DNA of 64,000 nucleotides from Candidatus Woesearchaeota archaeon (GCA_043771635.1 JAYVHA010000007.1:2233-66232); one strand, 5' to 3'; counted from the first letter of the stretch, positions 3,632-51,541 are shown. The notes: generated by a model from the letters alone, not told the origin. Program-made: numbers and translations.

Positions 3632-5102
<1,471 letters not shown>

Positions 5103-23879: not shown

Positions 23880-23932
23880 CTGACGGATTAACTGCTCCAG
23901 CCGACGTATCGATCTGGCAGGTCACGAATCTT
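23880..23932 (+). repeat. dispersed repeat, 5'-block-only copy A
   Basis: ctgacggattaactgctccagccgac...ctggcaggtcacgaatct. Confidence 0.55.
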
Positions 23933-27955: not shown

Positions 27956-28095
27956 TTCGGAAAATTTTCGGAAAATTCTGACACAGTAAACAGAGTTTTA
28001 CTTGAGATATATCACTGTAACACACATTTTTAAGATGGTGTTCTATAGTGGATAAAGCTGTTGAAAAGAATCCTTTGCTGGGACAAAAAGTATTA

Positions 28096-28379
28096 CTGAT
28101 CCAGCCGACCGCCCGACCTGACAGGTCTCAAGTCTCAGTCTTTCGGGATATTTTTGGCAGTTGTAGGTTCGCCGTAGGCGGCACTTTCGGACGGAAGAAC
28201 AAAGCGTCAAATTCCTCACCTGTTTTTCTCAGAGCGGCCATCCCTCGAGCAAAAGTTGAGATGATATAATAGAGGAACTCCGAGTCTGTAATACAAACCC
28301 GAAAAAACACATGAAAAAACGTTATACAAATATGAGCCTCGTATAAGATTTATAAGCACCTACAGCGCAACCAAATGAG
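28096..28379 (+). repeat. dispersed intergenic repeat, copy C (conserved 5' block, variable middle, conserved 3' block with bidirectional promoters)
   Basis: 5' ctgatccagccgaccgcccgacctgacaggtctcaagtctc. 3' gagatgatataatagaggaactccgagtctgtaatacaa...gatttataag. Aligns to 38834-39116. Confidence 0.7.
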
Positions 28380-30144: not shown

Positions 30145-30620
30145 GAGAATGCGGGATAGGTTTCCAATACGGATGGGAGAACTCATGGAACGTCTATAAT
30201 TTTACAACTATATCGGGCGCGCCAGAATTCAAAGGAGAAGTTTCTGTAGAATCGGGCGGCGTTCTCCTCCCGACAAATGACGGCGGTAACAGGCTTGGAA
30301 GCGTTATGACGTACATTGGAGCAAGCGGCCTAGCAGGAAGCACATTAATGGTGCAGGCTCGAACAGGAGGCTTTACAAAAAACGGAAGTCCTGTGATTGA
30401 TGTGGAAGCAGTCTTGCGCCTCAACGGCACCAACGTTAAGGACGTTATGCGCCAACAACTACCATTTCACCAACTTACCGACGTTGAGAAATTGAAACAG
30501 CATGGCTTTCGAGTCGCGACGTTTATTGATGGCGAAGTTGTTCCAGGCACTGTCAAAGAATACACACCGGAAACCATTCAAGCGGCGTACACTGAATCAA
30601 TTAAGTGGGTGACTTTTTAG
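30141..30620 (+). CDS. hypothetical protein (159 aa)
   Basis: ATGA overlap with the upstream gene suggests co-translation. Confidence 0.4.
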   Translation: MRECGIGFQYGWENSWNVYNFTTISGAPEFKGEVSVESGGVLLPTNDGGNRLGSVMTYIGASGLAGSTLMVQARTGGFTKNGSPVIDVEAVLRLNGTNVKDVMRQQLPFHQLTDVEKLKQHGFRVATFIDGEVVPGTVKEYTPETIQAAYTESIKWVTF

Positions 30621-30924
30621 CACAAGCTTGCCTTAACGCTTGTTCAGCATAGATGTCCATCTCGACAAGTTTCTGCTGCTCGGCTGGCGACAGTAGTTCC
30701 CAGCTGTGCAGGAGGATTTCTTTGAATTTGTCTACGTCTAGTGTTACAGTGCGTTGTATCATAACTTGTCTTTGATCGTTGACAGTTTTATGTCTTGTCG
30801 TCGGAGACAATGCTCCGCCCGAGCAGTATACCCGGCCACTTAATGTTTCGGGTTTAGATCGCAAGCTGTTCCAGATTTTATCAATTGCAATGCTTTGGGG
30901 AAAGTATATACTTTGGACTTCCAC
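30601..30924 (-). CDS. small hypothetical protein; source gene of the dispersed repeat family (fragments elsewhere)
   Basis: Peptide ..KPETLSGRVYCSGGAL.. and ..KFKEILLHSWELLSPAEQQKLVE... Nucleotide-level relatives at 28096-28136, 38834-39013 (encodes MNEPTITLSVSKFKAILIHSWDLLSPQEQQKLV), 23880, 24604 and 31591. The 5' portion overlaps the 30840-31484 ORF. Confidence 0.35.
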   Translation of the reverse strand: MEVQSIYFPQSIAIDKIWNSLRSKPETLSGRVYCSGGALSPTTRHKTVNDQRQVMIQRTVTLDVDKFKEILLHSWELLSPAEQQKLVEMDIYAEQALRQACAKKSPT

Positions 30925-31590: not shown

Positions 31591-31747
31591 TCTGAGAATG
31601 TATTACAACTGCTCCAGCCGGTCCCCAGGGCAAACAGGTCCTGAACCGGACGTATAAAACCCTCCTAAGCACTTCTGGGCTTTTAAAGCCGAAAATCCTT
31701 CGAATTTTCGCAGCGGGTTTAATAAGGTCGAAACGGCTCCACCCCCC
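31591..31747 (+). repeat. dispersed repeat copy E upstream of the biosynthetic operon
   Basis: tctgagaatgtattacaactgctccagccggtcc ... caggtcctgaa ... gggtttaataagg (TATA ~32 nt before ATG 31748). Confidence 0.45.
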
Positions 31748-32797
31748 ATGGACGCCACTTTCAACCAACGAGTCGTGTGTGGCAAAGGAATAACGGCGCA
31801 GGAGCTTGCTCAGCTACCCTCCGCATGCGTGATTTCAACAAAGTCAGCAGTACGGGCCTTCAAGCAGTATTTGCCAGAAAGCGATTACCCAACGATTATT
31901 ATTCGTTCAAACAACCAAACAGAGATTGAGCGAGTAGTTATCCAAATCCAAGGCAGCAACTGCGAGACCATCATCGGGCTTGGCACGGGCTCGGCGATCG
32001 ATGTCTCCAAAGTAGTTGCGGATGCTGTGAACAAACCACTTGTATGTATTCCAACCGGTCTATCGTGCAATGTCTTTGCAACAAATAAATCCGTGATTTG
32101 TAAGCAGTCTGCTATTTGCACGATTGTTTCCAAAATCCCCGAGATAGTGATCGTGGACACAAATTTACTATCTCTCTCCGACCTTCGCTACACCATTGCA
32201 GGAATCGGCGATGTGCTATCTGTGTACACTGCAATGCATGACTGGGATCTTGCGCGAGTTCATAGCGATGAACCTGACAATTTCACAATACGAACGGTAG
32301 CTGAATCTTTGATAGACCCGATGGTACAGTTAGTTCCAAAGCTTATCCAAAATGATCCGTCGGCAATAGAGCAACTCACGCAACTACTACTGCTTTCTGG
32401 ATACCTGACGAATATGTACGGCTCAGGCCGCCCTGAAAGCGGATCAGAGCACATGTTTGCACGCGCTATAGAAACAGATCCAGTATTCGGTAAACGATTG
32501 CTTCATGGAGAAGCAGTTCTCCTTGGCATCCTTCTCAGTGCAGAACTTCAGGGACGCCCAAGCGACGCAATTCTAGGTATTGCACAAATGAGTGGCTTAA
32601 GGGCGCGCTATGAAGACGCTGAACTAACCGAAAACGATATGGTGAAGTTCTTAATAACAGCGAGTACAATCAGACCTGAACGGTTCTCAATTTTCAACAT
32701 TGTCCACCTAGACGCTACACTCGCACACGATATCGTGAAGCGTGTGCTGGCGAAGCTTTCGGTGCCACATGTCATTCCTGCAGCTACCACACTTTAA
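31748..32797 (+). CDS. DHQS/iron-ADH superfamily enzyme; glycerol-1-phosphate dehydrogenase (EgsA)-like or sugar-phosphate cyclase-like
   Basis: GLGTGSAIDVSKVVA (nucleotide-binding), PTGLSCNVFATNKS, metal-ligand-like SGSEHMFARAIE and HGEAVLLG. 349 aa. Confidence 0.5.
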   Translation: MDATFNQRVVCGKGITAQELAQLPSACVISTKSAVRAFKQYLPESDYPTIIIRSNNQTEIERVVIQIQGSNCETIIGLGTGSAIDVSKVVADAVNKPLVCIPTGLSCNVFATNKSVICKQSAICTIVSKIPEIVIVDTNLLSLSDLRYTIAGIGDVLSVYTAMHDWDLARVHSDEPDNFTIRTVAESLIDPMVQLVPKLIQNDPSAIEQLTQLLLLSGYLTNMYGSGRPESGSEHMFARAIETDPVFGKRLLHGEAVLLGILLSAELQGRPSDAILGIAQMSGLRARYEDAELTENDMVKFLITASTIRPERFSIFNIVHLDATLAHDIVKRVLAKLSVPHVIPAATTL

Positions 32798-33683
32798 ACT
32801 GGACGGCAACAGAGTGATCTTTCTGAACCAATACGAATATCTCAGCACACCGGAAAGGCTTTCGGTGAATAACCCGTTACACCAAAAAGTACTTGTTGAC
32901 GAAGGCATCATTGTCGGTCCTCCACCGCCTGCACCTGCTACAACAAAGTTGCCAGTGCTGTTCATTGAACCTCACTACGATGACATTGCACTATCCTGTG
33001 CGAATGCACTTCTTGTACATCGTGCTAACGGGCATCCCGTGCACGTCGCAACGTTGTTCCCTCGTACTGCGATAGCGACGTTTCCATGGCGAGCACAAGT
33101 TACATTGTCGGCTGAGGCGTATCATAAGCTGCGGCAGGCTGAAGGCTCTGGAGCTATGCATGCTTACCTAGGGGGTACGGTCCACTCATTTGACGAGCGG
33201 GGCGCAAGCCTGCGGGGATCAAAAGAACCATTCGGCCAATATGAAACCGGCGATCAAATTGTTGTTGAACGGCTGTTAGAAGGAGTTGAAGCACTTATAC
33301 AGGAGATAAAGTGCAATAATGTATTTGCGCCTATGGGATTTGGTATGCACCGCGATCACCGCGTGGCTCATGAAATCGGCCTTGCGTTAGCGAACCGCGG
33401 CCATCAAGTACAATTTTACGAAGATCAGCCCTATGCAAGCAACCGGTTCACATTTGCCACCACACTCGGATCGCAATGGCAAATGCACTACACAGACAGT
33501 GGCCCGAACCTTGATTCGATAGCAAATCTCATCACTATGTATCGCTCCCAATTTGACGATAGTACACGATCACAAACACTTGCAACTCTTAAGTGTCAAG
33601 CACGTACAGCGGCAGTTGAAGGTCGAGGCGCCCACGAATTCGGGGATGCAGAGTTTGCTGAACGGACACGGGTGCTTAGATGA
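32742..33683 (+). CDS. LmbE/PIG-L family N-acetylglucosaminyl deacetylase
   Basis: LFIEPHYDDIALSC (PIG-L HPDDE-type metal site) and MHRDHRVAHE. Confidence 0.65.
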   Translation: MCWRSFRCHMSFLQLPHFKLDGNRVIFLNQYEYLSTPERLSVNNPLHQKVLVDEGIIVGPPPPAPATTKLPVLFIEPHYDDIALSCANALLVHRANGHPVHVATLFPRTAIATFPWRAQVTLSAEAYHKLRQAEGSGAMHAYLGGTVHSFDERGASLRGSKEPFGQYETGDQIVVERLLEGVEALIQEIKCNNVFAPMGFGMHRDHRVAHEIGLALANRGHQVQFYEDQPYASNRFTFATTLGSQWQMHYTDSGPNLDSIANLITMYRSQFDDSTRSQTLATLKCQARTAAVEGRGAHEFGDAEFAERTRVLR

Positions 33684-35002
33684 GAATCGCGTTCATCGAT
33701 GACGAACCAGAGATATATCCGCATTCGTACGGTGGAAAAGCACGGACAATACGAACACTTGCAAACGCACTAGCAAATACGCCTTCAGTAGATAAGGTGC
33801 TTATCGCAAGTCGAAGTATCCGAGACTCACGGAAAATATTCTATGAAGAGGGCGTACAGTTTCAATTGCTCGAGGGCTACGGCATAGCAAGTGAGTTGCG
33901 AAGAATCACTCATGAATATGACATTGTAAACGTTCATACTTGCTCGTTTACATTCCCACAGGTGCTTGATACGCCAGCGCGTATTATCAACCACCTCCAT
34001 GATGTTATCTACGCAACATGCGACGCAGGAAGTCATCTTGACAAAGCCCTCGGCGGCCAATGGAGCGGAATTATAGCGCCATCCGAATTCGCAGCTCAAA
34101 CCGCACGGAATGTTGGCTGGTGGAACCTGAGCCTAGACGATATTGCTGTAATTCCTCGCATCATTGACGCCAATCGATTTTTTTTGATGGACCAGAGTGC
34201 TGCACGCCAAGCGCTCGCAGAAGTACTACCGAAGCACGCGCAAGTAATTCGGGACAGCTATCCGTTACTTGCATTTCCGAATCGACCAACCGCAGGAAAA
34301 GGCGGCGCCATACTCGCTGAATTACATGAATTACTCCGTGAAGAATTTGAATCGCCGCTTATTATCACAACCGGCGGCGACAGCGATTCGCATGCAATCA
34401 GTAGCGGCTGGTTGCAAACCAATCAGCTTCGCGCACTGTATGCAGCGGCAGATATATGCCTTGTCCCATCACTTCTTCCTGAGTCATTCTCTCAAGTTCC
34501 TCTGGAAGCAGTTATGTGCGGAACACCAACCATCTCTACGCGATTTGGTAATCTTGGACTGCTTGCAGACACTGTACCGGGAATATACGAAGCGAAACCT
34601 TCAGCAGCACACATTAGAGAGCGAGTGCATGAAGTGCTTGCTGAAGGGAAAGAAGCAGCAGCAGAAGGCCGCACCAGAATTATGACGCAGTATAGCGCAC
34701 GCAGCGTTATTGTAAAACTGCTTGCTGCGTATGATTCGATGCCCGCACATCCAAAACCCGCAGTAACACATAGTTCTCTGGACGCACGGTGGTTTACATC
34801 CCCTCTCCTTGCAGTCTACGGGACAGAGGCATTCCTGGGAACTGACGGTTTGCCTCAGGCAATTGCACTAACAGAGAACGATCGCTCCCTTCTGCAGTAT
34901 TGCGCACGCGCACGAACACAAATCGACTTGAGTCGTTCGGGCCTAGAATACACACAAAGCGTGCGACGGCTCAGTGAAGCAGGAGCACTCATCAAGGCAT
35001 AA
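33680..35002 (+). CDS. glycosyltransferase, GT-B fold (GT4-like)
   Basis: C-terminal ADICLVPSLLPESFSQVPLEAVMCGTPTIST (GT1/GT4 E-x7-E region). Confidence 0.65.
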   Translation: MRIAFIDDEPEIYPHSYGGKARTIRTLANALANTPSVDKVLIASRSIRDSRKIFYEEGVQFQLLEGYGIASELRRITHEYDIVNVHTCSFTFPQVLDTPARIINHLHDVIYATCDAGSHLDKALGGQWSGIIAPSEFAAQTARNVGWWNLSLDDIAVIPRIIDANRFFLMDQSAARQALAEVLPKHAQVIRDSYPLLAFPNRPTAGKGGAILAELHELLREEFESPLIITTGGDSDSHAISSGWLQTNQLRALYAAADICLVPSLLPESFSQVPLEAVMCGTPTISTRFGNLGLLADTVPGIYEAKPSAAHIRERVHEVLAEGKEAAAEGRTRIMTQYSARSVIVKLLAAYDSMPAHPKPAVTHSSLDARWFTSPLLAVYGTEAFLGTDGLPQAIALTENDRSLLQYCARARTQIDLSRSGLEYTQSVRRLSEAGALIKA

Positions 35003-35005
35003 AAC

Positions 35006-36136
35006 ATGGTACAAAAAACTCCCTTCGTCATTAATGACATATTGTTCTTAGAAGAATTCTGCAATCTCGCATGCGGTTACTGTGAAGGTTTCTACCCGAC
35101 TGAATTCAAGTTCAAACCCCGAGAAGGCAAACTCCGTATGCCAACTTCATGGAAAGCCATGGTTGAAGCGGATCAGTCACTGCAAACACGCCTAAGCAGC
35201 GAACCAACTGTTGACAGTTTATTCGATGTCGGAAGAGAAGTGCTTGAGCGCATGAATGAAAAAGCAACCTACCCTATTCTGAAACTTTCAGGAGGCGAAA
35301 TATTTCTCTATGATAAGCTCGTTTCATTTGTTGAATCTATTCATGATCAATACTCAGGCGTTCAGTTACTCACGAATGGCGTTCTCTTTGGTGCCGCCGA
35401 GGTTGACCGTTTAGCGTCACTCGGGAACGTTTACTTTCAAATATCTCTAGATGGCGTTACACCACAAACAAACTCCTCGCGCTCTAAAAGTGGCGCAACA
35501 CTTGATCGAATACTACGGAACATCGATCGCATTCAAGATGCCGGCATGGGACTCGAAATAAACTGTGTATTAACGAATACAAACACTGATTCTTTCCTAC
35601 ATCTTGCGGAATACATGGCGCACCGCGGCACGTCTATTGTAATGCCTCGCCCAGTACGCGGACCACCTGCAAAAACGCAAGCGGCAAGCGATGAACAAGT
35701 GCGCGCATTTGCAACGGTTCGTGAGCGATATAATGATATTGGACACGTGCTTCCACCTGAAGCGTATCTTGATCGAGTCATTAGCGTACTCGAACGTAAG
35801 CAACGAAGTTGGGATTGTTTCGTGCCCTTTTTCGTACTCGGAGAAAACTATTACGGAAAAATTAACACCTGTACTTGTAGTGGAGCTTTACCGGTTCTTG
35901 GAAACGCACTTGACAAGGATACAACCGCATTCCACACACTGAGCACTCGTGCACAATACGATGCAAAGAGTAAGCCCGAGCCATGCGCAGACTGCATAAC
36001 GCAATACGAAGTGTTCAATCTGTATGCAGAAGGAAAAGTGACTGATGCCGAGCTTACCAAACTCGCGACATTCCGTGTACCAAACGCACTTGCAACAGCA
36101 CAGAGAATTAAAGCAGAGCTGCATACTTCGCGATGA
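35006..36136 (+). CDS. radical SAM enzyme (possible SPASM/twitch auxiliary cluster)
   Basis: CNLACGYC (CxxxCxxC). Extra Cys near C-terminus (CTCSG..CADC). Confidence 0.7.
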   Translation: MVQKTPFVINDILFLEEFCNLACGYCEGFYPTEFKFKPREGKLRMPTSWKAMVEADQSLQTRLSSEPTVDSLFDVGREVLERMNEKATYPILKLSGGEIFLYDKLVSFVESIHDQYSGVQLLTNGVLFGAAEVDRLASLGNVYFQISLDGVTPQTNSSRSKSGATLDRILRNIDRIQDAGMGLEINCVLTNTNTDSFLHLAEYMAHRGTSIVMPRPVRGPPAKTQAASDEQVRAFATVRERYNDIGHVLPPEAYLDRVISVLERKQRSWDCFVPFFVLGENYYGKINTCTCSGALPVLGNALDKDTTAFHTLSTRAQYDAKSKPEPCADCITQYEVFNLYAEGKVTDAELTKLATFRVPNALATAQRIKAELHTSR

Positions 36137-37305
36137 AAACTCTTGTACATATTCCATGGAGTTTGCAGCCAGGGTTTATTGGCGGCACCGAACGCTTTGC
36201 AATCGATCTTACGAAGGGACTGCGCAAGCAAGGCAACGATGCGACAATTGTTTGTTCCAACCTTGAAGAGCAATTAATTATCGAAGGCGTACCGGTGTTC
36301 GGACGCATTCCAGCACAATATCGAGATAAAGTTAAAAACTATGGCGCAGCCGACGAACACTTCTTTCGGAACGAAGTGCTTCGCGGATCAGAGCCAGGTT
36401 TCTGTGAACGCATGTCGGCATATGTTGCACAGCAAATAGAAGGGTTTGATTTCGACATCATTCATTTTAACAATATGATCGGCGCGGCAAAATTACCACC
36501 AGCGCTTCTTCGTCGTTCGATTGTAAGCGTACATGACTGTCCTGAAGAGCTAACAAACTATTGGAAAATGCCGTACGAGACAATACGACGCGCTGTGGAC
36601 CAAAATGGCGAACTAGTGCAAGCCGGTGCGCTCGTCGCAAGTACTCAGCACTATGCTGCTCGATTTAGTGCCGACCTCAATTTCACGTTTGCTGTTATTC
36701 CACTTGGTGTGCAACCAAGCGCAGTTACTCAATCCCAACGGAACCCTTCTGAGCCACCCACCATTCTTTTGCCCGCGCGATTTGATGTAAACCAAAAGGG
36801 ACAAGACATTGCCGTGCGAGCGCTTAGTATGCTGAAAGCATGGAACGTACCCGCACGCATGATACTGAGCGGATACCAGCCTGAAACGTATGCTCGCGAT
36901 AAAAAGATGATTGATACACTTATTGCTGAGTGCGGCGCCGAGGAAGAAATAACCATAACCCGATTCGAGCGACGAAGTGATGCATATGCAGCCGCTGACA
37001 TTGTTGTTTCCCCGGAACGTTTTTGTACGTTTGGACTTTCTATAGCTGAATCATTAGCAGAAGGGATACCAACTGTACTTGCACCAATTCCAACGTATCA
37101 GGAAATAACGAAGGGTGCCCCTCATGCATCCTTCGCTGTCGATCACACTCCACTTGCGTTTGCGAATGCACTACGTACCGTGATTCGGAGCGGATACTTA
37201 CGCGATCCTGTAGCTGCAAAACAGTTCCAAGCCGATCACTCGTTTGCAACAACAGTAAACCGCTATAGCGATTTGTATGCCGCAGTTCTGCGGCGAGCAC
37301 AATGA
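36133..37305 (+). CDS. glycosyltransferase family 4
   Basis: N-terminal GGTERFAIDLTKGLRKQGNDATIV. C-terminal GLSIAESLAEGIPTVLAP. Confidence 0.65.
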   Translation: MKTLVHIPWSLQPGFIGGTERFAIDLTKGLRKQGNDATIVCSNLEEQLIIEGVPVFGRIPAQYRDKVKNYGAADEHFFRNEVLRGSEPGFCERMSAYVAQQIEGFDFDIIHFNNMIGAAKLPPALLRRSIVSVHDCPEELTNYWKMPYETIRRAVDQNGELVQAGALVASTQHYAARFSADLNFTFAVIPLGVQPSAVTQSQRNPSEPPTILLPARFDVNQKGQDIAVRALSMLKAWNVPARMILSGYQPETYARDKKMIDTLIAECGAEEEITITRFERRSDAYAAADIVVSPERFCTFGLSIAESLAEGIPTVLAPIPTYQEITKGAPHASFAVDHTPLAFANALRTVIRSGYLRDPVAAKQFQADHSFATTVNRYSDLYAAVLRRAQ

Positions 37306-37943
37306 TTCGTGCAGTACTATTCGACATGGACGGAGTACTCATCAACTCGGAAGAATTATGGCATAGCATCGAACCTGAAATCCTTCGTACTATAGTACCT
37401 GAGTGGAACGAAGCCTTGCAAAAACACATTACGGGCATGAGTTCGCGAGGCGTGTACGCTTATCTCTGTGCTGAGCACGGCGTTACGGAATCGTTTTCCG
37501 TGTTTGAAGGACGCTACCGCGCTGCAGCAAAACGCATTTACGGGAAGGAAGGAGCGCTATACCCTGGTGTGCGTGAAGCACTGGTTATGGCGAGTAAAGA
37601 CGGTCGAAAAATCGCGATTTGCTCATCTTCACCCACAGCCTGGATACAGATGATGGTGGAACACCTCAACATTAAGGATTGTTTCGATGCAGTAGTAAGC
37701 GCAGACCGCATTGGCGGAAAAGGCAAACCTGCACCTGATGTATATTTGCTTACCTGTCAGACACTTGCTGTGAAACCAGCCGAATGTATTGCAATTGAAG
37801 ACTCAAGAAACGGAATCGCATCAGCGAAGGCTGCTGGGATATTCACGTATGGATATCTAAATGGCTTCAACACGCTAGAAGATTTGGCTAACGCGGACGC
37901 CATAATCACAGACTTCGCGCAGATCGAATGGAACAAGCAATAG
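37302..37943 (+). CDS. HAD-superfamily hydrolase (subfamily IA, beta-phosphoglucomutase-like)
   Basis: AVLFDMDGVLINSE motif I. IAICSSSP. IEDSRNGIASAKAAG. Confidence 0.7.
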   Translation: MIRAVLFDMDGVLINSEELWHSIEPEILRTIVPEWNEALQKHITGMSSRGVYAYLCAEHGVTESFSVFEGRYRAAAKRIYGKEGALYPGVREALVMASKDGRKIAICSSSPTAWIQMMVEHLNIKDCFDAVVSADRIGGKGKPAPDVYLLTCQTLAVKPAECIAIEDSRNGIASAKAAGIFTYGYLNGFNTLEDLANADAIITDFAQIEWNKQ

Positions 37944-38727
37944 CGTTGCGCAGCGCAGGTGCATGTTCAGAAAGCAACGCGAGTTTCGTGCGAGCTGAAG
38001 CAGTAATCGATTTCGACGACGCATCACGTTTCTTTCCGAACTCTGCAATTAAATCCCTATTGCGTTTCTTCATTAAGGGCAGCACCTTAGCAGCTTCTAC
38101 TCTATTCAGTGGAAACACGCCGTCATAAGCGCCGAGAAACACTGTTAAACCTTTCAGGTCCAGGCCGTTAGTGCGGGTGATGAATAGCTGTGTGCTGGCA
38201 ATTGCTAGGTCTTGAACTACTGTAGCGCTATGAGCGTCACCAAAGTCAATGAATACTATGCCTCCCTGAGTTCGAATACTATTTTCCCGAGTGATGTCTG
38301 CGTGAATGGTGGCCCGTCGAAGCGAGTTTGGAGCGTTTGAACTTCCCCCAATCGCGCTAAGCGCACGGTGCAGCATCCCAAGAGACTTGCCCACAGCCTT
38401 TGCTACCGGAGTCGAGATTCGCAAGCCAAGCGGTTCACCCTGTACGTATGAAAGAAGCAAAGCCGAACAGTTCTGGTCCACAGTAAAGAGTTTTCCGGCC
38501 TTCGTAGGTATTACTGCAGGCACCGGCGCTGAATGCCCAGTTAGCGCTGCCAGAAGCACCCCTTGTGCTCGCAGCGTTTTGCTCGTTTTTGCAAACCGGA
38601 GTACGTAATCGCGCTTACCGGCAGTGACCTTGAATACAGCGTCCGGACCTCGATTAAGGCGTTTAATCGCGCTTGCGGAAATTCCATACTGCCGCAATAC
38701 TAATTGCACGATTCGGACAGTTGCCAT
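37906..38727 (-). CDS. aminoglycoside/choline-kinase-like phosphotransferase (APH family)
   Basis: IHADITRENSI and FIDFGDA (Brenner and DFG-like motifs of the PF01636 family). Confidence 0.6.
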   Translation of the reverse strand: MATVRIVQLVLRQYGISASAIKRLNRGPDAVFKVTAGKRDYVLRFAKTSKTLRAQGVLLAALTGHSAPVPAVIPTKAGKLFTVDQNCSALLLSYVQGEPLGLRISTPVAKAVGKSLGMLHRALSAIGGSSNAPNSLRRATIHADITRENSIRTQGGIVFIDFGDAHSATVVQDLAIASTQLFITRTNGLDLKGLTVFLGAYDGVFPLNRVEAAKVLPLMKKRNRDLIAEFGKKRDASSKSITASARTKLALLSEHAPALRNAIACSIRSARSL

Positions 38728-38833: not shown

Positions 38834-39116
38834 CTGACGGGTTAACTGCTCCAGCCGACCCCACGACCTGGCAGGTCTCAAGTCTCCGGGAAAAGGCCAA
38901 TGGCCACTAGCTTTTGTTGCTCTTGGGGTGAGAGCAAGTCCCAGCTGTGGATTAGAATAGCTTTGAACTTCGAAACACTCAGAGTTATGGTAGGTTCGTT
39001 CATACCACCTCTAAAGGTAAGATGATATTTAGCGGGAACTCCGAGTCCGTATAACACGCGACGAAAAACGGCCTAAAAACCGTATAACATATTCGAGATT
39101 TATAAAGGATCAATTC
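38834..39116 (+). repeat. dispersed intergenic repeat, copy B
   Basis: 5' ctgacgggttaactgctccagccgaccccacgacctggcaggtctcaagtctc. 3' gtaagatgatatttagcgggaactccgagtccgtataacac...gatttataaagg. Minus strand retains a 41-codon remnant MNEPTITLSVSKFKAILIHSWDLLSPQEQQKLV.. with SD agaggtgg. Confidence 0.7.
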
Positions 39117-39156: not shown

Positions 39157-39726
39157 TTATAATACGCTTCTTCGCTTTAATTCAAAAAAGCATTTTGCAC
39201 ACATTGCTACATCAACTTTTGCATCGTGAGCACCAGAAAATTCACTATCAAACAATTTTTTGTGTAGTTCTTTGAGCGCCGGCCATTTAAATCCTCGATC
39301 GGTTTTTATCGCACAGTATTCAGTGGTTGTTAACATCGTGCATGTTCTAATTGAGTCCCCGAACGGAAATAATAATTCACAACGTATAAACTCTGCGTGA
39401 ATTACTGGTTCATCAAAACTCAAATTATGGGCAATAATGTTCTTAGACTTCTTTACATCTTCTGAAAACATAATAAGTGCTTCTTTTAACAAAATACCTT
39501 CTTGCAGGGCTCTTTCAGTAGTAACGCCATGAATGCGAGAAGCCTCCAAAGGTATAGTATAACCCTCTGGATAAATTATGAAATCCTCTTGTTTGACTAA
39601 GGAGCCCTCACCATCATATAGTTGCCAAGCAAGCTGAACAACCCGAGGCCAGTTTTGCAAATCAGATGGAAGACCTTTGTAGTTTTTTGGTAAACCGGTA
39701 GTTTCAGTGTCGAAAATGAGAAACAT
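39157..39726 (-). CDS. DEDDh 3'-5' exonuclease (DnaQ/RNase T-like)
   Basis: Exo I FDTETTGLP, Exo II HNLSFDEPVI, Exo III HDAKVDVAMCAKCF. Confidence 0.8.
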   Translation of the reverse strand: MFLIFDTETTGLPKNYKGLPSDLQNWPRVVQLAWQLYDGEGSLVKQEDFIIYPEGYTIPLEASRIHGVTTERALQEGILLKEALIMFSEDVKKSKNIIAHNLSFDEPVIHAEFIRCELLFPFGDSIRTCTMLTTTEYCAIKTDRGFKWPALKELHKKLFDSEFSGAHDAKVDVAMCAKCFFELKRRSVL

Positions 39727-39851: not shown

Positions 39852-41603
39852 ATGAAACTAGTAGGGTTAAAACTAGCCTACATTAAGTCTTTTAAAACTC
39901 TGGATTGGAATATAGCCCGAACTAAGGTAATAATTGGTCAAAATGATCATGGCAAGTCCTCAATTCTTAAGATACTAAATTTTGTTCTGAACGAGATTAC
40001 CGACTATCATCTGGATCAAGGATTTTTGGAGCCTGCACTAGCAGAAAAACTAATTCCTGCATTTAGTACGAGCGCTCGCGCCAGGCGCATAACATTAATT
40101 GTGCAAGAAAAAAGCAAATATAAAGAACTGTATATTGATATTGGACGCAATTACTCCATAAAAGTTCATGATAAAATAACGCGGGGCGCTAAAACTACTC
40201 CTGCAGGCAAGAAGCTATTCACAAAGATACGTAGTAAAAATAGGTTTGAACTGGTACCAGCGATAAGAGACGTATCGTCAGAGATATATAAGCAGCTTTT
40301 TTCTACAACGCTACAGCAACACGGACTTTCAAAACTAAAACCCAAAGCCGCGGGTGGAACACAGAGAGAATACAGAGAACTACTAGCTATTAGAAATAGC
40401 ATCGATGAAATTATCCAGCCGTATGTACATAAACGATTGCTGCCCAAGTTAAGTGACGAATTTGGTTTCACGCCACAGCACGAACTTCTTCTAACATTCA
40501 ATAAGGATACAGAGGCAATTGCCGAATGGATTCAAAGCAACCTACAACTTGGTTTCAAATTAGGCAAGGAAGCAGAAGAATATATTTCAATTGATGAAGC
40601 GGGAACAGGAATACAAAGTGCCTTGCTCCTTGCGCTCATAAGATTAAAAAATAGAAGTGAAGCTGACAAGAATGTTCATTTTTTTCTTGCCATCGAAGAA
40701 CCGGAGACATTTCTACATCCACAAAAACAAAAAGAGCTTTACTCTAGCATCAAGGGATTGGAGTCTGATAACCTAACCATAATTATCACGACGCACAGCC
40801 CATACATTGTTTCTGAATCTAAATTTTCTAGCTTAGGGATAGTTCGCAAAGACGACAAGTTCTCAAACCTCCACACTGTGAAGAGCGTGCCACCAAAAGA
40901 TATGGACATATTTGACAGCTATAGTGGTGAAGTAAATTCACAATTGTTTTTTGCGGATAAAGTCATACTCGTAGAAGGAGAAAGCGATAAAAGAGTTATA
41001 GAAACAATTTTACACCGCAAATTTGGAGCCAAGTCATTTAGGTATACAGTAATTTCGGCGGCAGGCAACAGAAATTTTTCGCCATATCTAAAAATGATCA
41101 ACTGTTGGAAAGAATTGAAGATTCCTCATCTAGTTGTTACTGATTTTGATTCATTAACGGCGGGTAGCGATAGAGCCATGAATACTGGCGCAAAGGCCGC
41201 AGGATATTTGCTAAATGCTGAGCAACTGTTAAATCAAAACGTAGACGACGCGATTCAAAAAGATGAAGGCGAGTATAGAAAAATAGCCATTCAAGCAGCC
41301 AATTTCTATGCTCGTTCAGGATTAGAAGTATTCATTTGGACTTGTGACTTGGAGTATGCACTAATTTCGGATAGCAAAATAGACCCAATAGTTCGGGAAT
41401 TAAGTGCAGCGAACAATTCAAGCTATTCAGGCTACACTTGCGCTCAACTGCGTACATTAATCGGAAGCAAAGGCATCCCTCTAAACAGCGGATCAGATGC
41501 ATTAAAGAAACCGTACATACATCAAAAATTGTCGTGGCATTTAGACCTGGATGACACTGAAAGTGATGTATATCGTCTGATTCAAGCAATAAATAAGTTA
41601 TGA
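39852..41603 (+). CDS. OLD-family nuclease: N-terminal ABC-type ATPase + C-terminal Toprim
   Basis: Walker A GQNDHGKSSILK. Walker B/H-loop FLAIEEPETFLHP. Toprim ILVEGESDKRVIE and HLVVTDFDSL. Confidence 0.75.
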   Translation: MKLVGLKLAYIKSFKTLDWNIARTKVIIGQNDHGKSSILKILNFVLNEITDYHLDQGFLEPALAEKLIPAFSTSARARRITLIVQEKSKYKELYIDIGRNYSIKVHDKITRGAKTTPAGKKLFTKIRSKNRFELVPAIRDVSSEIYKQLFSTTLQQHGLSKLKPKAAGGTQREYRELLAIRNSIDEIIQPYVHKRLLPKLSDEFGFTPQHELLLTFNKDTEAIAEWIQSNLQLGFKLGKEAEEYISIDEAGTGIQSALLLALIRLKNRSEADKNVHFFLAIEEPETFLHPQKQKELYSSIKGLESDNLTIIITTHSPYIVSESKFSSLGIVRKDDKFSNLHTVKSVPPKDMDIFDSYSGEVNSQLFFADKVILVEGESDKRVIETILHRKFGAKSFRYTVISAAGNRNFSPYLKMINCWKELKIPHLVVTDFDSLTAGSDRAMNTGAKAAGYLLNAEQLLNQNVDDAIQKDEGEYRKIAIQAANFYARSGLEVFIWTCDLEYALISDSKIDPIVRELSAANNSSYSGYTCAQLRTLIGSKGIPLNSGSDALKKPYIHQKLSWHLDLDDTESDVYRLIQAINKL

Positions 41604-42045: not shown

Positions 42046-45000
42046 TTGGGTGGGCAGATAATCTGCCAAAGAGTGATAGAAGCAACAAGAAAAAACGTAC
42101 TACTCTTTATTGCATTAGTTGCACTTTTTTCTTGCGTATTTTCAGTGCGGGCTGCGGAATATAGTACTGCTACAGCTTTTCCGACAATTCCAGGCTTAGG
42201 ATTGAATACAGGTGTTGTTGCGGCTGCAGATCAGAACACTGGTGCTTTCGCATATAGTTACCAGTTTACAGTCCCTGAAGGTCCTGGCGGTTTAAAACCT
42301 GAGGTAGTACTGTCATATAATTCTCAGGCTGCTCGTGAACAGCGAGGAAACCAAGCAGCTGGCTGGGTTCTTAATAACGAGTATATTGACCGATTCCAAA
42401 ACTATACTCCATACATACTAACGGATGACGAATTCTACTTAGTATCTGGAAACGGGCGTGAGAAACTCATGTACAATGGATCTGGGACTAATAGATGGCA
42501 TACTCAGCACGAGACATTTACTTACATACAGAACTTAACATCAACTTCCAACAACTTTGGGATGTACTGGTCGATAAAGTATCCTGATGGTACAACAAAA
42601 CGTTATGGAGAATCTAGTAGTGAAGAATATGAAACCACTTACGGTGTAATGGCGAAACGCTATCATCTCGACCAGACAAATGACACATATGGCAATAAAC
42701 TACAGTTCCACTATCAACCAGCTGGAGTATTCACCTTAGACTACATAACTTATGGCGGTTCTACCCCAAGAACAGTTCAATTCGTGTATGAACCAAGACA
42801 ATATCCTAGGACCACTTACTATAATGGCTTTGAAGAACAATACACAGCTAGGCTTGCTGGAGTACAAACTACATACGGCGGAACACAAGTAAGATACTAC
42901 GATTTGAACTACTCAGTATCTGATTATTTGGAGCTATTACAATCAATAACTGAGTTATCAGCAACGAATAGCACATCATTACCAGCTACCACATTTAGCT
43001 ACTACTCAGCAACCGGGTGGATCAATCTAACCAGTCCATGGAGTCTTAACCCGCTATACTTCTTTGAATTCGAAGATGGTAAGGATTCAGGCGCCAGGGT
43101 AATTGACATAACTGGAGATGGCTTAGCTGACTACATACGACAAGTAATGTGCAATTCAAGCGCCTATAATAATACGCCTAACGTAAGTACAGCATATATG
43201 CGACAATTCCCTGGCGCAAGCAAAATAACTGTAACGGCGCAAGCATATGGAAATAGTTCTAACATGCAAAACTATGCCGTATCAGCAGGATTTCCACTAA
43301 CTGCAGCTCACAACCTTACGCAATCAGGCATTCTCAGCATCACTAATCAAGAGTATGGTCTTTACATAACTCCGAATAGAAACATATCGCTTCACCGCGT
43401 CAATGGTGATGGAATAGGTGCACCTTTCGAAATTGAGGTATTCAATGTATCATCAAGGATAGAAATCGCATCAGCTATAGGATCGAATGGCTATGCACAA
43501 TTTGACTCAGGCGTAAATTTATTCGCGCACCAGCGATATAGAGTGAGCTTTAAAGGAGCATCGCAAACGTATAGATATGGATCAGGTACAGGAGAGACTG
43601 TCAATTCAACATATCTTGCTATTGAGTGCGGCTACAGATATAATGATCCAAATGAAGGGTACTGCTATTCAATAGCATCATTCTCTATAGAGGAGCTATT
43701 TGAAAACAGCACCACTACAGGTTCCACTACCCTGAATCTAAACAACGGCGTGTACAATGGCAGGATACTTGCGGAAAACCACACGACAAAAACCTTTACG
43801 CTCACAGTTAACGGAACAGGTACGCAGCATGTATCAGATGTAGTTACCTCAAACGACTACTGTGCACCTGTACTGATAAACAACGGAAGCGGATACAACC
43901 TAGACGATGGCACTTGGAGAGTACCTACAAACTACTCGTTCGTGGACAATGGCACTGATTTAGGCACAAGATTTGCAGACATAAATGGAGATGGCCGCGT
44001 TGATCTCGTGCGAAGCGACTGCACCGCCGGAAAAACATTCAACGGAGTGATGCTAAACAATGGAGCTGGCTGGACTGCAACAAACTGGACTGTTCCAGCG
44101 GGTTACTGCATCATAGATGCCGGTTACAACGCAGGAACAGAACTTCTTGACGTAAACGCAGACGGAAGAGCAGATCTAGTAAACGGACGCGATCAAGCGC
44201 CGCTTATACTAAAAACAGCACTAAACACAGGATCTGGCTGGTCTAACTCAACTCAATTTACTCCACCAGTAGCCACAATGACCTACCTTGGAGGAGACGA
44301 CAGTGTGCGATACGTTGATATGAATGGAGATAATCTCGTGGATGTTCTTCAGCAATGCGGAGCTACAGCTTGCAGATCCTCTTACTTGAATAATGGTTCT
44401 GGCTGGAAATCAACGCAGGTATGGTGGACGCCTACCACGTACGCGTTTACTAACGGAATAACTGACGAGGGACTGCGACTAGTGGATCTTAACGGAGACG
44501 GGCTAACCGACATATTGAGGAGAAAGAATTGCACCTCCATTAACTGCTATGGAGTGCTGTTCAACAATGGAAGTGGCTGGATACAAGATACTTCAACATT
44601 ATGGATACCAAACAATACAATGGCGTTTACCATCGGTGAAAAAAACAAAATAATTCGACTAACAGACATAGATGGAGACGGAGCAGTAGATCTTGTTAAA
44701 CGAGATTTGTGTACAACCGCGGACTGTAATACTACACTGCGAAGCTTAGGAGCTAATAACAACCTGCTGCAATCAATAAAGTACAGCACCGGCGGAAACG
44801 TGACCGTTACGTACAACTACTCTGCTCGCAAAAAGAACCTCGGAACAGACAATATCGCAGACATGCCCTACTCTCTACCCGTGGTCGAAACGATAACGCA
44901 GGCAAATGGTATTAGCGGGGCGTCCCAAAGACAAGAAACGACAGGTTACAACTATTCGGGTGCCGTTTACGCAAGAAACGCTTGGACAAGTGAGTTCCGA

Positions 45001-47106
45001 GGATTCGCCACCACAAACCAAACTATAGGTAGAAAAAGAATCTCGACAAACTGGTTCCAATCAACAGGTCTCGAAGGCCGAATTAAGTATCGCGAAACAC
45101 ACGACGGCAGCACAAGGCTCAGAAACGAATCAAGCGACACATTTGTGCACAACTCATCCTATATTTACAAAGCGGTAACGCTGGGCGTTACAACAGCCCA
45201 ATACGATGGAAACTCAACACCTTGGACGACAATAACGAACTTTACGTACGACCAGTACGGAAACGCCCTCACGGAATACTCGCAAGGCGACACAGCAATA
45301 ACTGGTGATGAGCGTCTAAAGAATAAAACTTACACTGCGAACACCGCATTATGGATCATTAATACAGTCAATAAAGAGCAGCTACTGGCTGCAAATAACG
45401 TAACAATTCTGCGGCAAACTAACTACAGCCGAAACACACAAGGATCAGTCAGCGGAGAAGAAAAATTCCTATCTGGAGGAACGAACACGTACAAGAACTA
45501 CACGTACGATGCGTACGGCAACATAAACAGAACAGCAGACGAAAGAGGATACGTAACAGCACAAACGTACGACTCATCCGGAACATTCCCCCTGACAACG
45601 CTTAATGCCCTCGGACAGTACACATACAGAACCTGGAACTCATCGCTTGGCACCTTAATTAGCGAAAACGACAGTAACAACTACTCGACAAACCACATGT
45701 ACGACGCATTCGCAAGAAAACTAACAACAACAAAACCGTACGACACAACAGCATCACCAACAGTATCGCACAGCTATTCATTTGACGGAGTAAGCCCCGA
45801 ATCAATTACAACTACGACAAAGATAAACGCAACAACAAACGCAGTAACAATCCAGTACCTGGACGGCCTAGGAAAAGTAGTACAAACCAAACAACTAGCA
45901 GAAGATGCACTGTACGCAGTACAAGACTTCACGTACGACACTCAAGCACGACTAAACCAAACAACAAACCCATACTACTCAAACAACAGCAGCTACGCAC
46001 ACCCCATACTAACCAACGGTTACTCGGGAATAACATACGACGCACAAGACAGACCAACACAACTAAGGTACGCAGATAGTAGGACAAAAAACACAACCTA
46101 CGCCAAGAACGTCACAACCAGTTATGATGAAAACGCGGAAAGAACAGACACGGTAAAAGATGCATACGCAAATACTATACGGATACTAGAGTACTTGAAC
46201 GGAACTGCATACGCGACTTCGTACACGTATGACGCAGTAAGCCAGCTACTAACAATTGAAGATGCACAAGGCAACGACATAACGTTCAGCTACGACACGT
46301 TTGGCCGAAAGACCTCACTTGTCGATCCTGACCTCGGAACTTGGAACTACACCTACGATGCTGCAGGTAACTTAGTTTCTCAACGTGACGGCCGCGGCGT
46401 GACAGTATCCCTCTCGTACGACGCACTGAACAGGGTAACTCGCAAAAACGGAACATCAAGCGCAATGGACTTCACATACGATACCATCGCAAAAGGAACA
46501 TTGGCAAAAGTGGCTCTGACAAGCGCGAACAAGACATTCGCGTACGACCAACGTTTACGACGCACGCAAGAGAACTTGAGCATAGACGGAATAACATTCA
46601 GCACGAATTATAGCTACGACAGTGCAGACCACCTCATCCAGAAGAATATGACGAATGGGACTAGCATTAGATATACGTATAACGCTTTTAACAAACCTGA
46701 GAGTATTACAGGGATAATTAATGACTTTGATTATGTTGCTGTAGGCCAGCCAAGCGGCCGCGCGTATAACAATACACTCACAACAAACCTGACTTACGAC
46801 ACGAATAGCTTGCGTCTTAGCCGCATATATACGGGCACGAAGCAAAACATGAGTTATAGTTACGATGCTGTTGGAAACATATTGTTAATTACAGATGTCG
46901 CAAATAACGCGTCAGAAACATACACGTACGACGACTTAAACAGAATTAGCACGGCGAACAGAATAGTAAACGGAACAACACAATTTAGTGCAGCATACAC
47001 AGTAAGCCCAATTAACGTAATTACGAAGATAGTCACAAATAGTTGGACTAAGACTTTCAGCTTCGGATCTGCGCCAGTGCATGCTCCAAGCGAGGCAGCA
47101 GAGTGA
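42046..47106 (+). CDS. TcB-like RHS/YD-repeat protein: SpvB-N domain, FG-GAP-like beta-propeller, long YD-repeat shell (no RHS core)
   Basis: Signal-like NVLLFIALVALFSCVFSVRA. SpvB-like PGLGLNTG..YSYQFTVPEGPGGLKPEVVLSYNS..AGWVL. Repeats DINGDGRVDLV, VDLNGDGLTDIL, TDIDGDGAVDLV with NNGSGW. Dozens of YD repeats (YTYDAAGNLVSQRDGRG, YDALNRVTRK). Start codon uncertain (TTG/GTG). Confidence 0.85.
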   Translation: MGGQIICQRVIEATRKNVLLFIALVALFSCVFSVRAAEYSTATAFPTIPGLGLNTGVVAAADQNTGAFAYSYQFTVPEGPGGLKPEVVLSYNSQAAREQRGNQAAGWVLNNEYIDRFQNYTPYILTDDEFYLVSGNGREKLMYNGSGTNRWHTQHETFTYIQNLTSTSNNFGMYWSIKYPDGTTKRYGESSSEEYETTYGVMAKRYHLDQTNDTYGNKLQFHYQPAGVFTLDYITYGGSTPRTVQFVYEPRQYPRTTYYNGFEEQYTARLAGVQTTYGGTQVRYYDLNYSVSDYLELLQSITELSATNSTSLPATTFSYYSATGWINLTSPWSLNPLYFFEFEDGKDSGARVIDITGDGLADYIRQVMCNSSAYNNTPNVSTAYMRQFPGASKITVTAQAYGNSSNMQNYAVSAGFPLTAAHNLTQSGILSITNQEYGLYITPNRNISLHRVNGDGIGAPFEIEVFNVSSRIEIASAIGSNGYAQFDSGVNLFAHQRYRVSFKGASQTYRYGSGTGETVNSTYLAIECGYRYNDPNEGYCYSIASFSIEELFENSTTTGSTTLNLNNGVYNGRILAENHTTKTFTLTVNGTGTQHVSDVVTSNDYCAPVLINNGSGYNLDDGTWRVPTNYSFVDNGTDLGTRFADINGDGRVDLVRSDCTAGKTFNGVMLNNGAGWTATNWTVPAGYCIIDAGYNAGTELLDVNADGRADLVNGRDQAPLILKTALNTGSGWSNSTQFTPPVATMTYLGGDDSVRYVDMNGDNLVDVLQQCGATACRSSYLNNGSGWKSTQVWWTPTTYAFTNGITDEGLRLVDLNGDGLTDILRRKNCTSINCYGVLFNNGSGWIQDTSTLWIPNNTMAFTIGEKNKIIRLTDIDGDGAVDLVKRDLCTTADCNTTLRSLGANNNLLQSIKYSTGGNVTVTYNYSARKKNLGTDNIADMPYSLPVVETITQANGISGASQRQETTGYNYSGAVYARNAWTSEFRGFATTNQTIGRKRISTNWFQSTGLEGRIKYRETHDGSTRLRNESSDTFVHNSSYIYKAVTLGVTTAQYDGNSTPWTTITNFTYDQYGNALTEYSQGDTAITGDERLKNKTYTANTALWIINTVNKEQLLAANNVTILRQTNYSRNTQGSVSGEEKFLSGGTNTYKNYTYDAYGNINRTADERGYVTAQTYDSSGTFPLTTLNALGQYTYRTWNSSLGTLISENDSNNYSTNHMYDAFARKLTTTKPYDTTASPTVSHSYSFDGVSPESITTTTKINATTNAVTIQYLDGLGKVVQTKQLAEDALYAVQDFTYDTQARLNQTTNPYYSNNSSYAHPILTNGYSGITYDAQDRPTQLRYADSRTKNTTYAKNVTTSYDENAERTDTVKDAYANTIRILEYLNGTAYATSYTYDAVSQLLTIEDAQGNDITFSYDTFGRKTSLVDPDLGTWNYTYDAAGNLVSQRDGRGVTVSLSYDALNRVTRKNGTSSAMDFTYDTIAKGTLAKVALTSANKTFAYDQRLRRTQENLSIDGITFSTNYSYDSADHLIQKNMTNGTSIRYTYNAFNKPESITGIINDFDYVAVGQPSGRAYNNTLTTNLTYDTNSLRLSRIYTGTKQNMSYSYDAVGNILLITDVANNASETYTYDDLNRISTANRIVNGTTQFSAAYTVSPINVITKIVTNSWTKTFSFGSAPVHAPSEAAE

Positions 47107-51218: not shown

Positions 51219-51541
51219 CAAAGGAAAAAACACTGACTAAGAATTTGAACGCAGACATCCTTGTTAATTTGTCCAATGTGGCAAGTAAAAAAAAAGTGTT
51301 CGAGATATTTAGTTCAGAACTATTTTTTCCAGAGTATTTCGGACACAACTGGGATGCGCTATATGACTGCTTAACAGACCTTGTTTGGCTTCCAAAAGTT
51401 AAAACAACTATTACAGTCTGTCTTCCAAAAAGGCTTTCTAACAATGATAAACTCGTTTTAGTAAGATTGCTTCAGGATGTAGACGCCTACTGGGAGCAGG
51501 AAAAGAGACATATTAGGGTCAAAATTGGTAATAACAATTAG
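51215..51541 (+). CDS. barstar-family immunity protein
   Basis: ELFFPEYFGHNWDALYDCLTDLVWLP versus barstar [26 protein letters not shown]. ATGA overlap with the toxin stop. Confidence 0.8.
   Translation: MTKEKTLTKNLNADILVNLSNVASKKKVFEIFSSELFFPEYFGHNWDALYDCLTDLVWLPKVKTTITVCLPKRLSNNDKLVLVRLLQDVDAYWEQEKRHIRVKIGNNN

Follow-up and report, generated by a model that had tools for sequence, protein, structure and literature searches.

What might an archaeon make with a dehydrogenase paralogue, two glycosyltransferases, a deacetylase, a phosphatase, a radical S-adenosylmethionine (SAM) enzyme, and a small-molecule kinase that are all encoded side by side? The question is raised by seven genes, here P1 to P7, at positions 31748 to 38727 of a stretch of DNA from a Candidatus Woesearchaeota archaeon (GCA_043771635.1, JAYVHA010000007.1:2233-66232). 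The whole stretch, referred to as the window, covers 64 kb of an 84-kb contig, and all coordinates are counted from its first nucleotide. An original prediction, made from the sequence of the window, had viewed the genes as a carbohydrate pathway built around glycosyltransferase family 4 (GT4), PIG-L/LmbE, and radical SAM enzymes, and with this the domains, motifs, and synteny described below agree. Our tentative answer is that the seven genes are a conserved, laterally mobile cassette for a soluble, glucosamine (GlcN)-containing glycoside that would be assembled on a small phospho-polyol and then tailored by the radical SAM enzyme and the kinase; such a pathway is the best fit because of the modular synteny, the gene fusions, and the enzyme classes involved.

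Organization and distribution of the cassette

An open reading frame (ORF) listing recovered all seven genes where they had first been placed, and both the ORFs and their junctions agree with the earlier view of a single coupled operon facing a convergent kinase of the aminoglycoside phosphotransferase (APH) family. P1 to P6 lie on the plus strand (31748-37943) and are translationally coupled, and P7 lies on the minus strand (37906-38727). Matches to Pfam and NCBIfam assign the products, from P1 to P7, to the iron-containing alcohol dehydrogenase/glycerol-1-phosphate dehydrogenase (G1PDH)-like, PIG-L, GT4, Radical_SAM, GT4, haloacid dehalogenase (HAD)-IA, and APH families, which bears out the first domain assignments with the exception of that for P1. 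As read from the sequence, ATGA overlaps join P2 to P3 (33680/33683), P4 to P5 (36133/36136), and P5 to P6 (37302/37305). A junction of the same type had also been claimed at 35002/35006, but there the TAA stop codon of P3 ends at 35002 and the ATG of P4 follows at 35006 after a 3-nt spacer. P2 does begin before the end of P1, as had been noted, although the longest ORF, from GTG 32742, is likely not the true one; ATG 32769 is favoured because it matches the N-termini of all orthologues and the public gene call, and it leaves an overlap of 29 nt. P6 and P7 share 38 nt at their 3' ends in a tail-to-tail arrangement.

Related loci were found by exact-sequence look-ups and a scan of genome collections, and their genes were identified by searches with the seven window proteins. 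About 20 independent loci, which represent at least six lineages of phylum rank, preserve this gene set in synteny, and because the synteny recurs in so many places the grouping of the genes is far beyond chance. The identical order, including the convergent kinase, is found in a Woesearchaeota metagenome-assembled genome (MAG) and in groundwater contigs, and a second, widespread Woesearchaeota variant lacks the HAD gene. The named closest homologues of the cassette proteins come from Nanoarchaeota/Woesearchaeota MAGs, in line with a probable DPANN, Woesearchaeales-like lineage, to which the archaeal rRNA genes of the window also point. The bacterial carriers include members of the candidate phyla radiation (CPR; Saccharibacteria, Buchananbacteria, Shapirobacteria, and further Patescibacteria), TM6, Clostridia, Erysipelotrichaceae, and 'Mollicutes' of the gut or rumen, and one Bacteroidaceae MAG. 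The gene set and its coupling, the catalytic motifs, the synteny across domains, and the fusions are all direct observations.

Two modules can be recognized in this synteny. The order PIG-L, first glycosyltransferase (GT4a, P3), radical SAM enzyme is invariant, and the kinase gene always follows: convergent with overlapping stop codons in DPANN archaea and CPR bacteria, co-directional in the Erysipelotrichaceae/Mollicutes, and fused to the radical SAM gene in Clostridia, where the fusion proteins have 629-651 amino acids. In all bacterial versions the gene for the second glycosyltransferase (GT4b, P5) lies directly 3' of the G1PDH-like gene, the pair is usually adjoined by the gene for the HAD-family phosphatase, and all three are contiguous in Saccharibacteria, TM6, and Firmicutes; they constitute a second adjacent module. 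The flanking genes differ at every locus, and the cassette therefore acts as a self-contained, transferable unit. Moreover, a neighbour-joining tree of the radical SAM proteins, computed without support values, places the window enzyme among CPR/TM6 sequences and apart from the other archaeal ones, a placement that hints at transfer between domains. Among the called genes inside the cassette loci there is no transporter, flippase, polyprenyl-phosphate glycosyltransferase, or lipid-synthesis gene.

Bacterial versions carry additional sugar-tailoring enzymes, namely an NDP-sugar (NDP-N-acetylhexosamine-type) 6-dehydrogenase nearest to UDP-ManNAc/UDP-GlcNAc dehydrogenases, a ManC-like nucleotidyltransferase, a HisJ-type PHP phosphatase, a GNAT protein, and a methyltransferase. 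In the groundwater version a gene for a YdjC-family carbohydrate deacetylase is situated directly 5' of the G1PDH-like gene (4025-4654 of locus L002 and 269-898 of locus L003) and brings a second deacetylase into the pathway. Some bacterial relatives have a second radical SAM gene (L017, 2467-3354; L030, 5349-6944; L031, 6310-8004 and 14218-16044), small and SPASM/twitch-like in the Erysipelotrichaceae and B12-binding in distant clusters, where it stands beside acyl carrier protein (ACP), AMP-ligase, and BtrH_N genes. These relatives represent variant pathways and may aid in deducing the chemistry.

A paralogue of glycerol-1-phosphate dehydrogenase

The nature of P1 (31748-32797) bears on every interpretation of the cassette. 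The original prediction had taken it for a cyclase resembling dehydroquinate synthase (DHQS), but the best family match is the NCBIfam model for G1PDH (EgsA, NF002022), which aligns over the full length at 166.5 bits without reaching the equivalog cut-off of 413 bits, versus 18 bits for TIGR01357 aroB (cut-off 305) and 16.5 bits for Pfam DHQS_C (cut-off 27.6). A cyclase of the DHQS or 2-deoxy-scyllo-inosose synthase (DOIS) type is ruled out by this difference between a strong and a marginal match. The best match in the PDB is 5fb3, the G1PDH of Pyrobaculum.

P1 is not, however, canonical EgsA either, and a housekeeping role is disfavoured: in addition to the sub-threshold score, it occurs in bacteria, has altered pocket residues, and belongs to a clade of its own. 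In a 38-sequence alignment and the neighbour-joining tree made from it, again without support values, the 20 cassette proteins, archaeal and bacterial alike, group together to the exclusion of canonical G1PDH and AraM-like sequences. They share with archaeal EgsA and bacterial AraM the fold, the zinc ligands (D155/H235/H253), the glycine motif for NAD(P) binding (G79/G81/D85), and the C-terminal arginine pair (R309/R312), but differ at seven near-invariant canonical residues (D108N, V114K, M221T, A224Y, S227G, C230E, and H239K/R). Thus the Asp of the S-H-D motif is N108 and the second His of GSEHxxSH is K/R239 across the 20 cassette proteins, against D and H in 17-18 of the 18 canonical ones, where substrate-contact residues are those suggested by conservation only. 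P1 also differs from EgsA in its inheritance, which in both bacteria and archaea follows the cassette and not the lipid genes. It is most likely still a Zn- and NAD(P)H-dependent polyol-phosphate oxidoreductase, one whose pocket appears to have been altered.

Glycosyltransferases, deacetylase, and phosphatase

P2 (32769-33683) encodes a de-N-acetylase of the PIG-L/LmbE family in which the metal motifs PHxDD and HxDH are both intact. An N-terminal extension of about 60 amino acids (window 32769-32950) is kept in all lineages with the pattern LP[HYF]F...x[FY]L.xY.Y...DEG, and could be a partner- or substrate-binding element. The gene always precedes that of GT4a (P3, 33680-35002), a retaining glycosyltransferase which in every locus lies between the PIG-L and radical SAM genes. 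The best family matches of GT4a are all GT4 enzymes that use UDP-N-acetylglucosamine (UDP-GlcNAc), i.e. GlcNAc-PG synthase, the lipopolysaccharide GlcNAc transferase, MshA, and BshA, and its best PDB match is a cyanobacterial sucrose-phosphate synthase. In the alignment E268 is invariant and E276 nearly so, a pair with E-x7-E spacing that we take to be the GT4 signature. The second glycosyltransferase, GT4b (P5, 36133-37305), has BshA as its best PDB match and matches the Pfam family GT4-conflict at 46.8 bits. P6 (37302-37943) is a HAD-IA protein that NCBIfam places in the HxpB/beta-PGM subfamily of sugar-phosphate phosphatases, and is a candidate sugar- or polyol-phosphate phosphatase.

GT4a carries a further feature that complicates a purely glycosidic view of the pathway. 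In DPANN, CPR, and TM6 the protein is about 90 amino acids longer than in Firmicutes, and an AlphaFold2 (AF2) model of the extension, based on 21 sequences, has a mean predicted confidence (pLDDT) of 89 and the order four strands, three helices, one strand. The C-terminal domain (window 34790-34999) is predicted to have the PqqD-like fold of a recognition element (RRE) for ribosomally synthesized and post-translationally modified peptides (RiPPs), and the N-terminal extension of P2 could possibly be its ligand. A Pfam search of the unassigned regions gave no match for the C-terminus of GT4a, PqqD included, for the N-terminus of the PIG-L protein, or for the C-terminus of the APH protein. Firmicute GT4a lacks the RRE-like domain. 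Its presence coincides exactly with a kinase encoded by a gene of its own, and it is missing from cassettes with a fused or co-directional kinase, a distribution that, speculatively, would also fit the recruitment of a partner protein. The closest known counterparts are the RRE (PqqD-like) domains of TigE, MibB/NisB, MccB, TglI, and the lasso B1 proteins; unlike these, the GT4a domain is fused to a GT4 enzyme in a sugar cassette, lacks a Pfam PqqD match, and has no precursor peptide that could be found. Indeed, two all-against-all searches of small ORFs within 2 kb of nine RRE-bearing cassettes returned no conserved small ORF, only shadow ORFs and noise.

The radical SAM enzyme and its kinase

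P4 (35006-36136) has the CX3CX2C motif of the radical SAM family at C19/C23/C26. When 21 homologues are aligned, just four other cysteines (C271, C289, C327, and C330) never vary; motif and auxiliary cysteines alike are conserved in a further comparison of 20 sequences that extends to distant outgroups. The original prediction had left the choice between a BtrN-like twitch enzyme and a SPASM enzyme to be settled, and the cysteine pattern identifies P4 as twitch-type, with a motif for a single auxiliary cluster and not the seven-Cys SPASM set. The spacing C-x17-C...C-x2-C recalls that of BtrN, yet BtrN is not among the PDB matches to the P4-family profile at E<0.1, nor among the 50 Foldseek hits listed. 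The AF2 model of P4 (pLDDT 90) is instead matched by SkfB, BlsE, viperin, SuiB, anSME, DesII, and MoaA at TM-scores of about 0.5-0.7, the nearest folds being SkfB and BlsE, in agreement with a profile search of PDB sequences. The top NCBIfam matches include MftC, which matures mycofactocin. Matches to the antiviral viperins (50.6 bits to PADLOC pVip and 44.8 bits to the NCBIfam viperin model, cut-off 180) extend over the radical SAM core only, and viperin structures align at TMq of about 0.5; the other six cassette proteins have no PADLOC match.

The P4 family is small: among 1.84 billion representatives of clusters formed at 50% identity, 186 belong to it at E<=1e-30. Its distant relatives adjoin genes for PIG-L, GT2, O-methyltransferase, DegT aminotransferase, B12-radical SAM, ACP/AMP-ligase, ROK kinase, and BtrH_N proteins, and one is itself a HAD-radical SAM fusion; these neighbourhoods are carbohydrate natural-product contexts, and those with BtrH_N, an acyl-transfer protein, resemble aminoglycoside clusters.

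The APH-family small-molecule kinase P7 has HxDxxxxN and DFGD motifs and is nearer to type II homoserine kinases and hydroxylysine-kinase domains than to APH(3'); a PDB search with it gave only spurious matches to repeat proteins. An APH-like kinase with a possible role in resistance or activation had been proposed, and while the family assignment stands, P7 more likely performs a biosynthetic or pro-drug self-protection step than that of a stand-alone resistance gene, since in many bacteria it is fused to the radical SAM enzyme.

A possible route to an amino-sugar glycoside

The substrates, step order, and product that we infer would be as follows. P1 would make a small phosphorylated polyol, most simply sn-glycerol-1-phosphate (G1P) from dihydroxyacetone phosphate (DHAP), GT4b would glycosylate it, and P6 would then strip the phosphate, following the logic of phospho-acceptor, glycosyltransferase, and specific phosphatase known from sucrose-phosphate, glucosylglycerol, and mycothiol synthesis. 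In the second module GT4a would add GlcNAc from UDP-GlcNAc and P2 would deacetylate it to GlcN, in the manner of MshA/MshB, BshA/BshB, or BtrM/BtrD. P4 and P7 may then act as a coupled pair, combining phosphorylation of a hydroxyl with a radical oxidation, elimination, or epimerization; alternatively, the pair might yield a phosphorylated, self-protected form of the product.

Three groups of known pathways offer parallels. In mycothiol and bacillithiol synthesis (MshA-MshA2-MshB and BshA-BshB) a retaining GT4 moves GlcNAc to a small, often phosphorylated acceptor, and a phosphatase and PIG-L/LmbE deacetylation to GlcN complete the core. The cassette goes beyond these pathways with a further GT4, a G1PDH-like enzyme, a twitch radical SAM enzyme, and an APH kinase, but has no cysteine ligase, and presumably uses a glycerol-phosphate-like polyol as acceptor instead of inositol-phosphate or malate. 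Sucrose-phosphate synthase (GT4) with its phosphatase SPP, and the GgpS/GgpP and GpgS/GpgP pairs, likewise set acceptor-phosphate, glycosyltransferase, and HAD phosphatase side by side, but the likeness holds at the level of the GT4 family only, and the cassette goes on to amino-sugar addition and radical/kinase tailoring. The butirosin/neomycin pathways combine the same enzyme classes (BtrM, a GT4; BtrD, a PIG-L deacetylase; BtrN, a twitch radical SAM dehydrogenase; and an APH resistance kinase), and the single auxiliary four-Cys motif of P4 and the position of its distant relatives near BtrH_N, ACP, and AMP-ligase genes add to this likeness. They differ from the cassette in that the latter has neither DOIS nor an aminotransferase, its P1 is G1PDH-like, BtrN is detectably related to P4 no further than at superfamily level, and the kinase-radical SAM fusions of many bacteria suggest a biosynthetic kinase.

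Several observations weigh against the proposed route. No cassette enzyme reaches the equivalog threshold of any characterized family, and therefore every substrate is a guess. P1 departs from canonical G1PDH at several otherwise invariant pocket positions, so that its substrate may not be DHAP/G1P. The HAD gene is absent from one widespread Woesearchaeota variant, P4 has no close characterized relative (the TM-scores to SkfB, BlsE, and viperin are only about 0.5-0.7), and the RRE-like domain predicted on GT4a points to a peptide or protein-tail ligand that a glycoside model leaves unexplained.

A more elaborate version of the soluble-glycoside pathway, possible but doubtful in our view, is that of an aminoglycoside-like pseudo-oligosaccharide of a kind not described so far, transferred between domains and common to DPANN archaea, CPR, TM6, and gut Firmicutes. 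Its glycerol-type aglycone would come from the repurposed G1PDH paralogue, the twitch radical SAM/kinase pair would tailor or self-protect it, and the RRE-bearing glycosyltransferase of the symbionts would link this chemistry with a partner, either peptide or protein. In that case the 'G1PDH homologues' of bacteria and DPANN archaea would in part mark this pathway and not archaeal-type lipids.

Alternative explanations

The RRE-like domain invites the suggestion that the product is a peptide-linked glycoconjugate, RiPP-like or built on a scaffold peptide, in which the domain would bind a ribosomal peptide or protein tail for glycosylation by GT4a, with the PIG-L protein, the SkfB-like radical SAM enzyme, GT4b, and the kinase as tailoring enzymes. 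A predicted RRE on a modifying enzyme fits this suggestion, as do the closest solved radical SAM enzyme by both sequence and fold, the RiPP maturase SkfB, and the presence of MftC among the top family matches; mycofactocin shows that a molecule derived from a peptide can be glycosylated. Nevertheless we consider a peptide-linked product unlikely. No conserved small ORF was found in or near the nine RRE-bearing cassettes, though a distant or very divergent precursor is possible, the cassette has no protease or transporter, and the Firmicute cassettes lack the RRE domain but have every other gene. It is hard to see what the G1PDH-like reductase, the sugar-phosphate phosphatase, and the NDP-sugar enzymes would do in the maturation of a peptide, and the radical SAM enzyme has its distant relatives in sugar clusters.

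A low-molecular-weight thiol or cofactor of the mycothiol/bacillithiol type, with a GlcN-polyol core on which the radical SAM enzyme would act later, for instance to insert sulfur, appears very unlikely. GT4, PIG-L, and phosphatase together do follow the logic of MshA/MshA2/MshB, the MshA and BshA models match both GT4 proteins, GT4b has BshA as its best PDB match, and retention of the cassette in very small genomes would suit a cofactor. However, the scores are low (MshA 28-31 bits against a cut-off of 462, BshA 21-26 against 274, and BshB1 16 against 182), the kinase has no place in the mycothiol or bacillithiol pathways, and the core cassette contains neither a cysteine ligase of the MshC/BshC type nor an acetyltransferase. 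The mycothiol-like (MshA/MshB) chemistry that had been entertained from the start thus holds as the closest analogy, although the cysteine ligase is lacking.

The match of GT4b to the 'conflict-system' GT4 family (46.8 bits), that of P4 to PADLOC pVip (about 50 bits), and the GajA/OLD-like gene and DEDDh nuclease that adjoin the cassette could be read as signs of an anti-phage small-molecule system with a viperin-like radical SAM enzyme; in a variant of this reading the cassette would make the primer of an envelope glycopolymer, a teichoic-acid-like glycerol-phosphate glycoside, and GT4 enzymes such as TagE do glycosylate glycerol-phosphate polymers. Both forms strike us as decidedly improbable, as there are no membrane, flippase, or polymerase genes, the pVip match is to the generic radical SAM core alone, the other six proteins have no match in PADLOC, and the neighbouring genes differ from locus to locus. 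P4 also has a four-Cys auxiliary motif, which viperins are not known to possess.

There is even less to commend a true aminocyclitol pathway of the 2-deoxystreptamine type, with P1 as sugar-phosphate cyclase and P7 as resistance kinase, which the original prediction had put foremost. P1 does belong to the DOIS/DHQS superfamily, a related radical SAM enzyme adjoins a BtrH_N protein, and GT4, PIG-L, and twitch radical SAM parallel BtrM/BtrD/BtrN, with P3 and P2 adjacent at every locus, a match at family level. But P1 matches G1PDH strongly and DHQS/aroB only marginally, the radical SAM profile did not retrieve BtrN from the PDB at E<0.1, and the window cassette, like every core cassette, lacks both DOIS and an (L-glutamine:DOI) aminotransferase; the lack of an aminotransferase in the operon had already been recognized.

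Finally, a housekeeping archaeal lipid operon, in which a canonical G1PDH would accompany the GlcN-archaetidylinositol head-group enzymes (a PIG-A-like glycosyltransferase and PIG-L), can almost certainly be dismissed even though G1PDH is the best-scoring family for P1 and GT4 plus PIG-L form the GlcN-phosphatidylinositol (GlcN-PI) pair of eukaryotes and methanogens, for CPR, TM6, Clostridia, Erysipelotrichaceae, and Bacteroidaceae have the entire cassette together with its P1, P1 scores 166 against 413 bits within a separate clade, the 64-kb window holds no GGGPS, DGGGPS, CDP-archaeol, or inositol-phosphate genes nearby, and the radical SAM enzyme, the kinase, and the second glycosyltransferase would be left unexplained. 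The GlcN-archaetidylinositol alternative raised earlier is contradicted on the same grounds; the refuting condition set there, a sole and canonical G1PDH together with characterized GlcN-PI enzymes, does not hold on the parts open to testing.

Significance of the cassette

Full-text searches of the literature did not turn up the cassette. Its constituent enzyme families are familiar, in contrast to their combination, the distribution across domains, the G1PDH paralogue, and the fusions of the radical SAM enzyme with the kinase and of GT4 with the RRE. In DPANN and CPR organisms biosynthetic capacity is minimal, and a seven-gene pathway that is kept and exchanged among them, and held in common with gut Firmicutes, likely matters for their symbiotic lifestyle. 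The P4 family has no characterized member. The paralogue P1 is a caution against inferring archaeal-type lipids in bacteria or DPANN from the presence of G1PDH homologues, and the fusion of a GT4 with an RRE-like domain is an unusual architecture that may extend peptide-recognition domains beyond the classical RiPP enzymes.

Upstream region and genomic surroundings

A TATA-box-like sequence, TTTAATAA, read from the sequence at 31718-31725 (+), sits 30 nt 5' of the P1 ATG, and no Shine-Dalgarno-like sequence was seen between the two; the archaeal P1 transcript is plausibly leaderless or near-leaderless. Further upstream, at 31608-31640 (+), a pattern match with three mismatches marks a repeat core of the ACTGCTCCAGCCG-N9-CCTGNCAGGTC-like type, the palindromic half of which is degenerate. 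A leaderless promoter arising from this repeat copy had been postulated, and of this the repeat core and the TATA-like site do exist, the leaderless status being a matter of inference. Scans for sigma-70 promoters and terminators gave no excess over the shuffled expectation, with models that are not relevant to an archaeon.

The repeat core belongs to a set of four intergenic elements of about 45 nt, all on the plus strand (23891-23923, 28095-28127, 31608-31640, and 38845-38877), where none would be expected by chance. Their core is ACTGCTCCAGCCG-N9-CCTG-N-CAGGTC, with GACCTG/CAGGTC palindromic, and two copies bracket the cassette, the one just 3' of it (38845-38877) having no mismatches. Regulatory site, small RNA, and remnant of a miniature inverted-repeat transposable element (MITE) are all possible identities of the element; the cassette flanks share no DNA-level repeat beyond these roughly 45 nt. 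Paralogous small ORFs also flank the cassette, at 30601-30924 (-) and 38878-39057 (-), the latter directly adjoining the repeat core, with a weak third fragment at 28228-28296. They have about 50% amino acid identity and share the pattern ...KFK.IL.HSW.LLSP.EQQKLV..., have no Pfam match, are not in the public gene calls, and could mark an insertion or duplication boundary.

Elsewhere in the window there is an archaeal 16S-tRNA(Ala)-23S ribosomal RNA operon, with an archaeal-type SAM synthetase nearby, and the archaeal 23S gene contains a group I catalytic intron at 797-1121 (-) (Rfam RF00028, 55 bits). Just 3' of the cassette lie genes for a DEDDh/RNase T-type exonuclease (39157-39726, -) and a GajA/OLD-like ATPase-TOPRIM protein (39852-41603, +; PADLOC GajA, 138 bits), a pair that could be a Gabija/OLD-type defence locus, though a GajB-like helicase was not seen beside it. 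They are followed at 42046-54269 (+) by three consecutive ORFs of 1686, 1371, and 914 amino acids, the first with YD-shell/RHS/FG-GAP matches. Within this region 300-nt segments at 48495 and 49900 are repeated 3114 nt downstream with 90% and 80% identity, respectively, suggesting that a toxin or surface-protein cassette has been duplicated.

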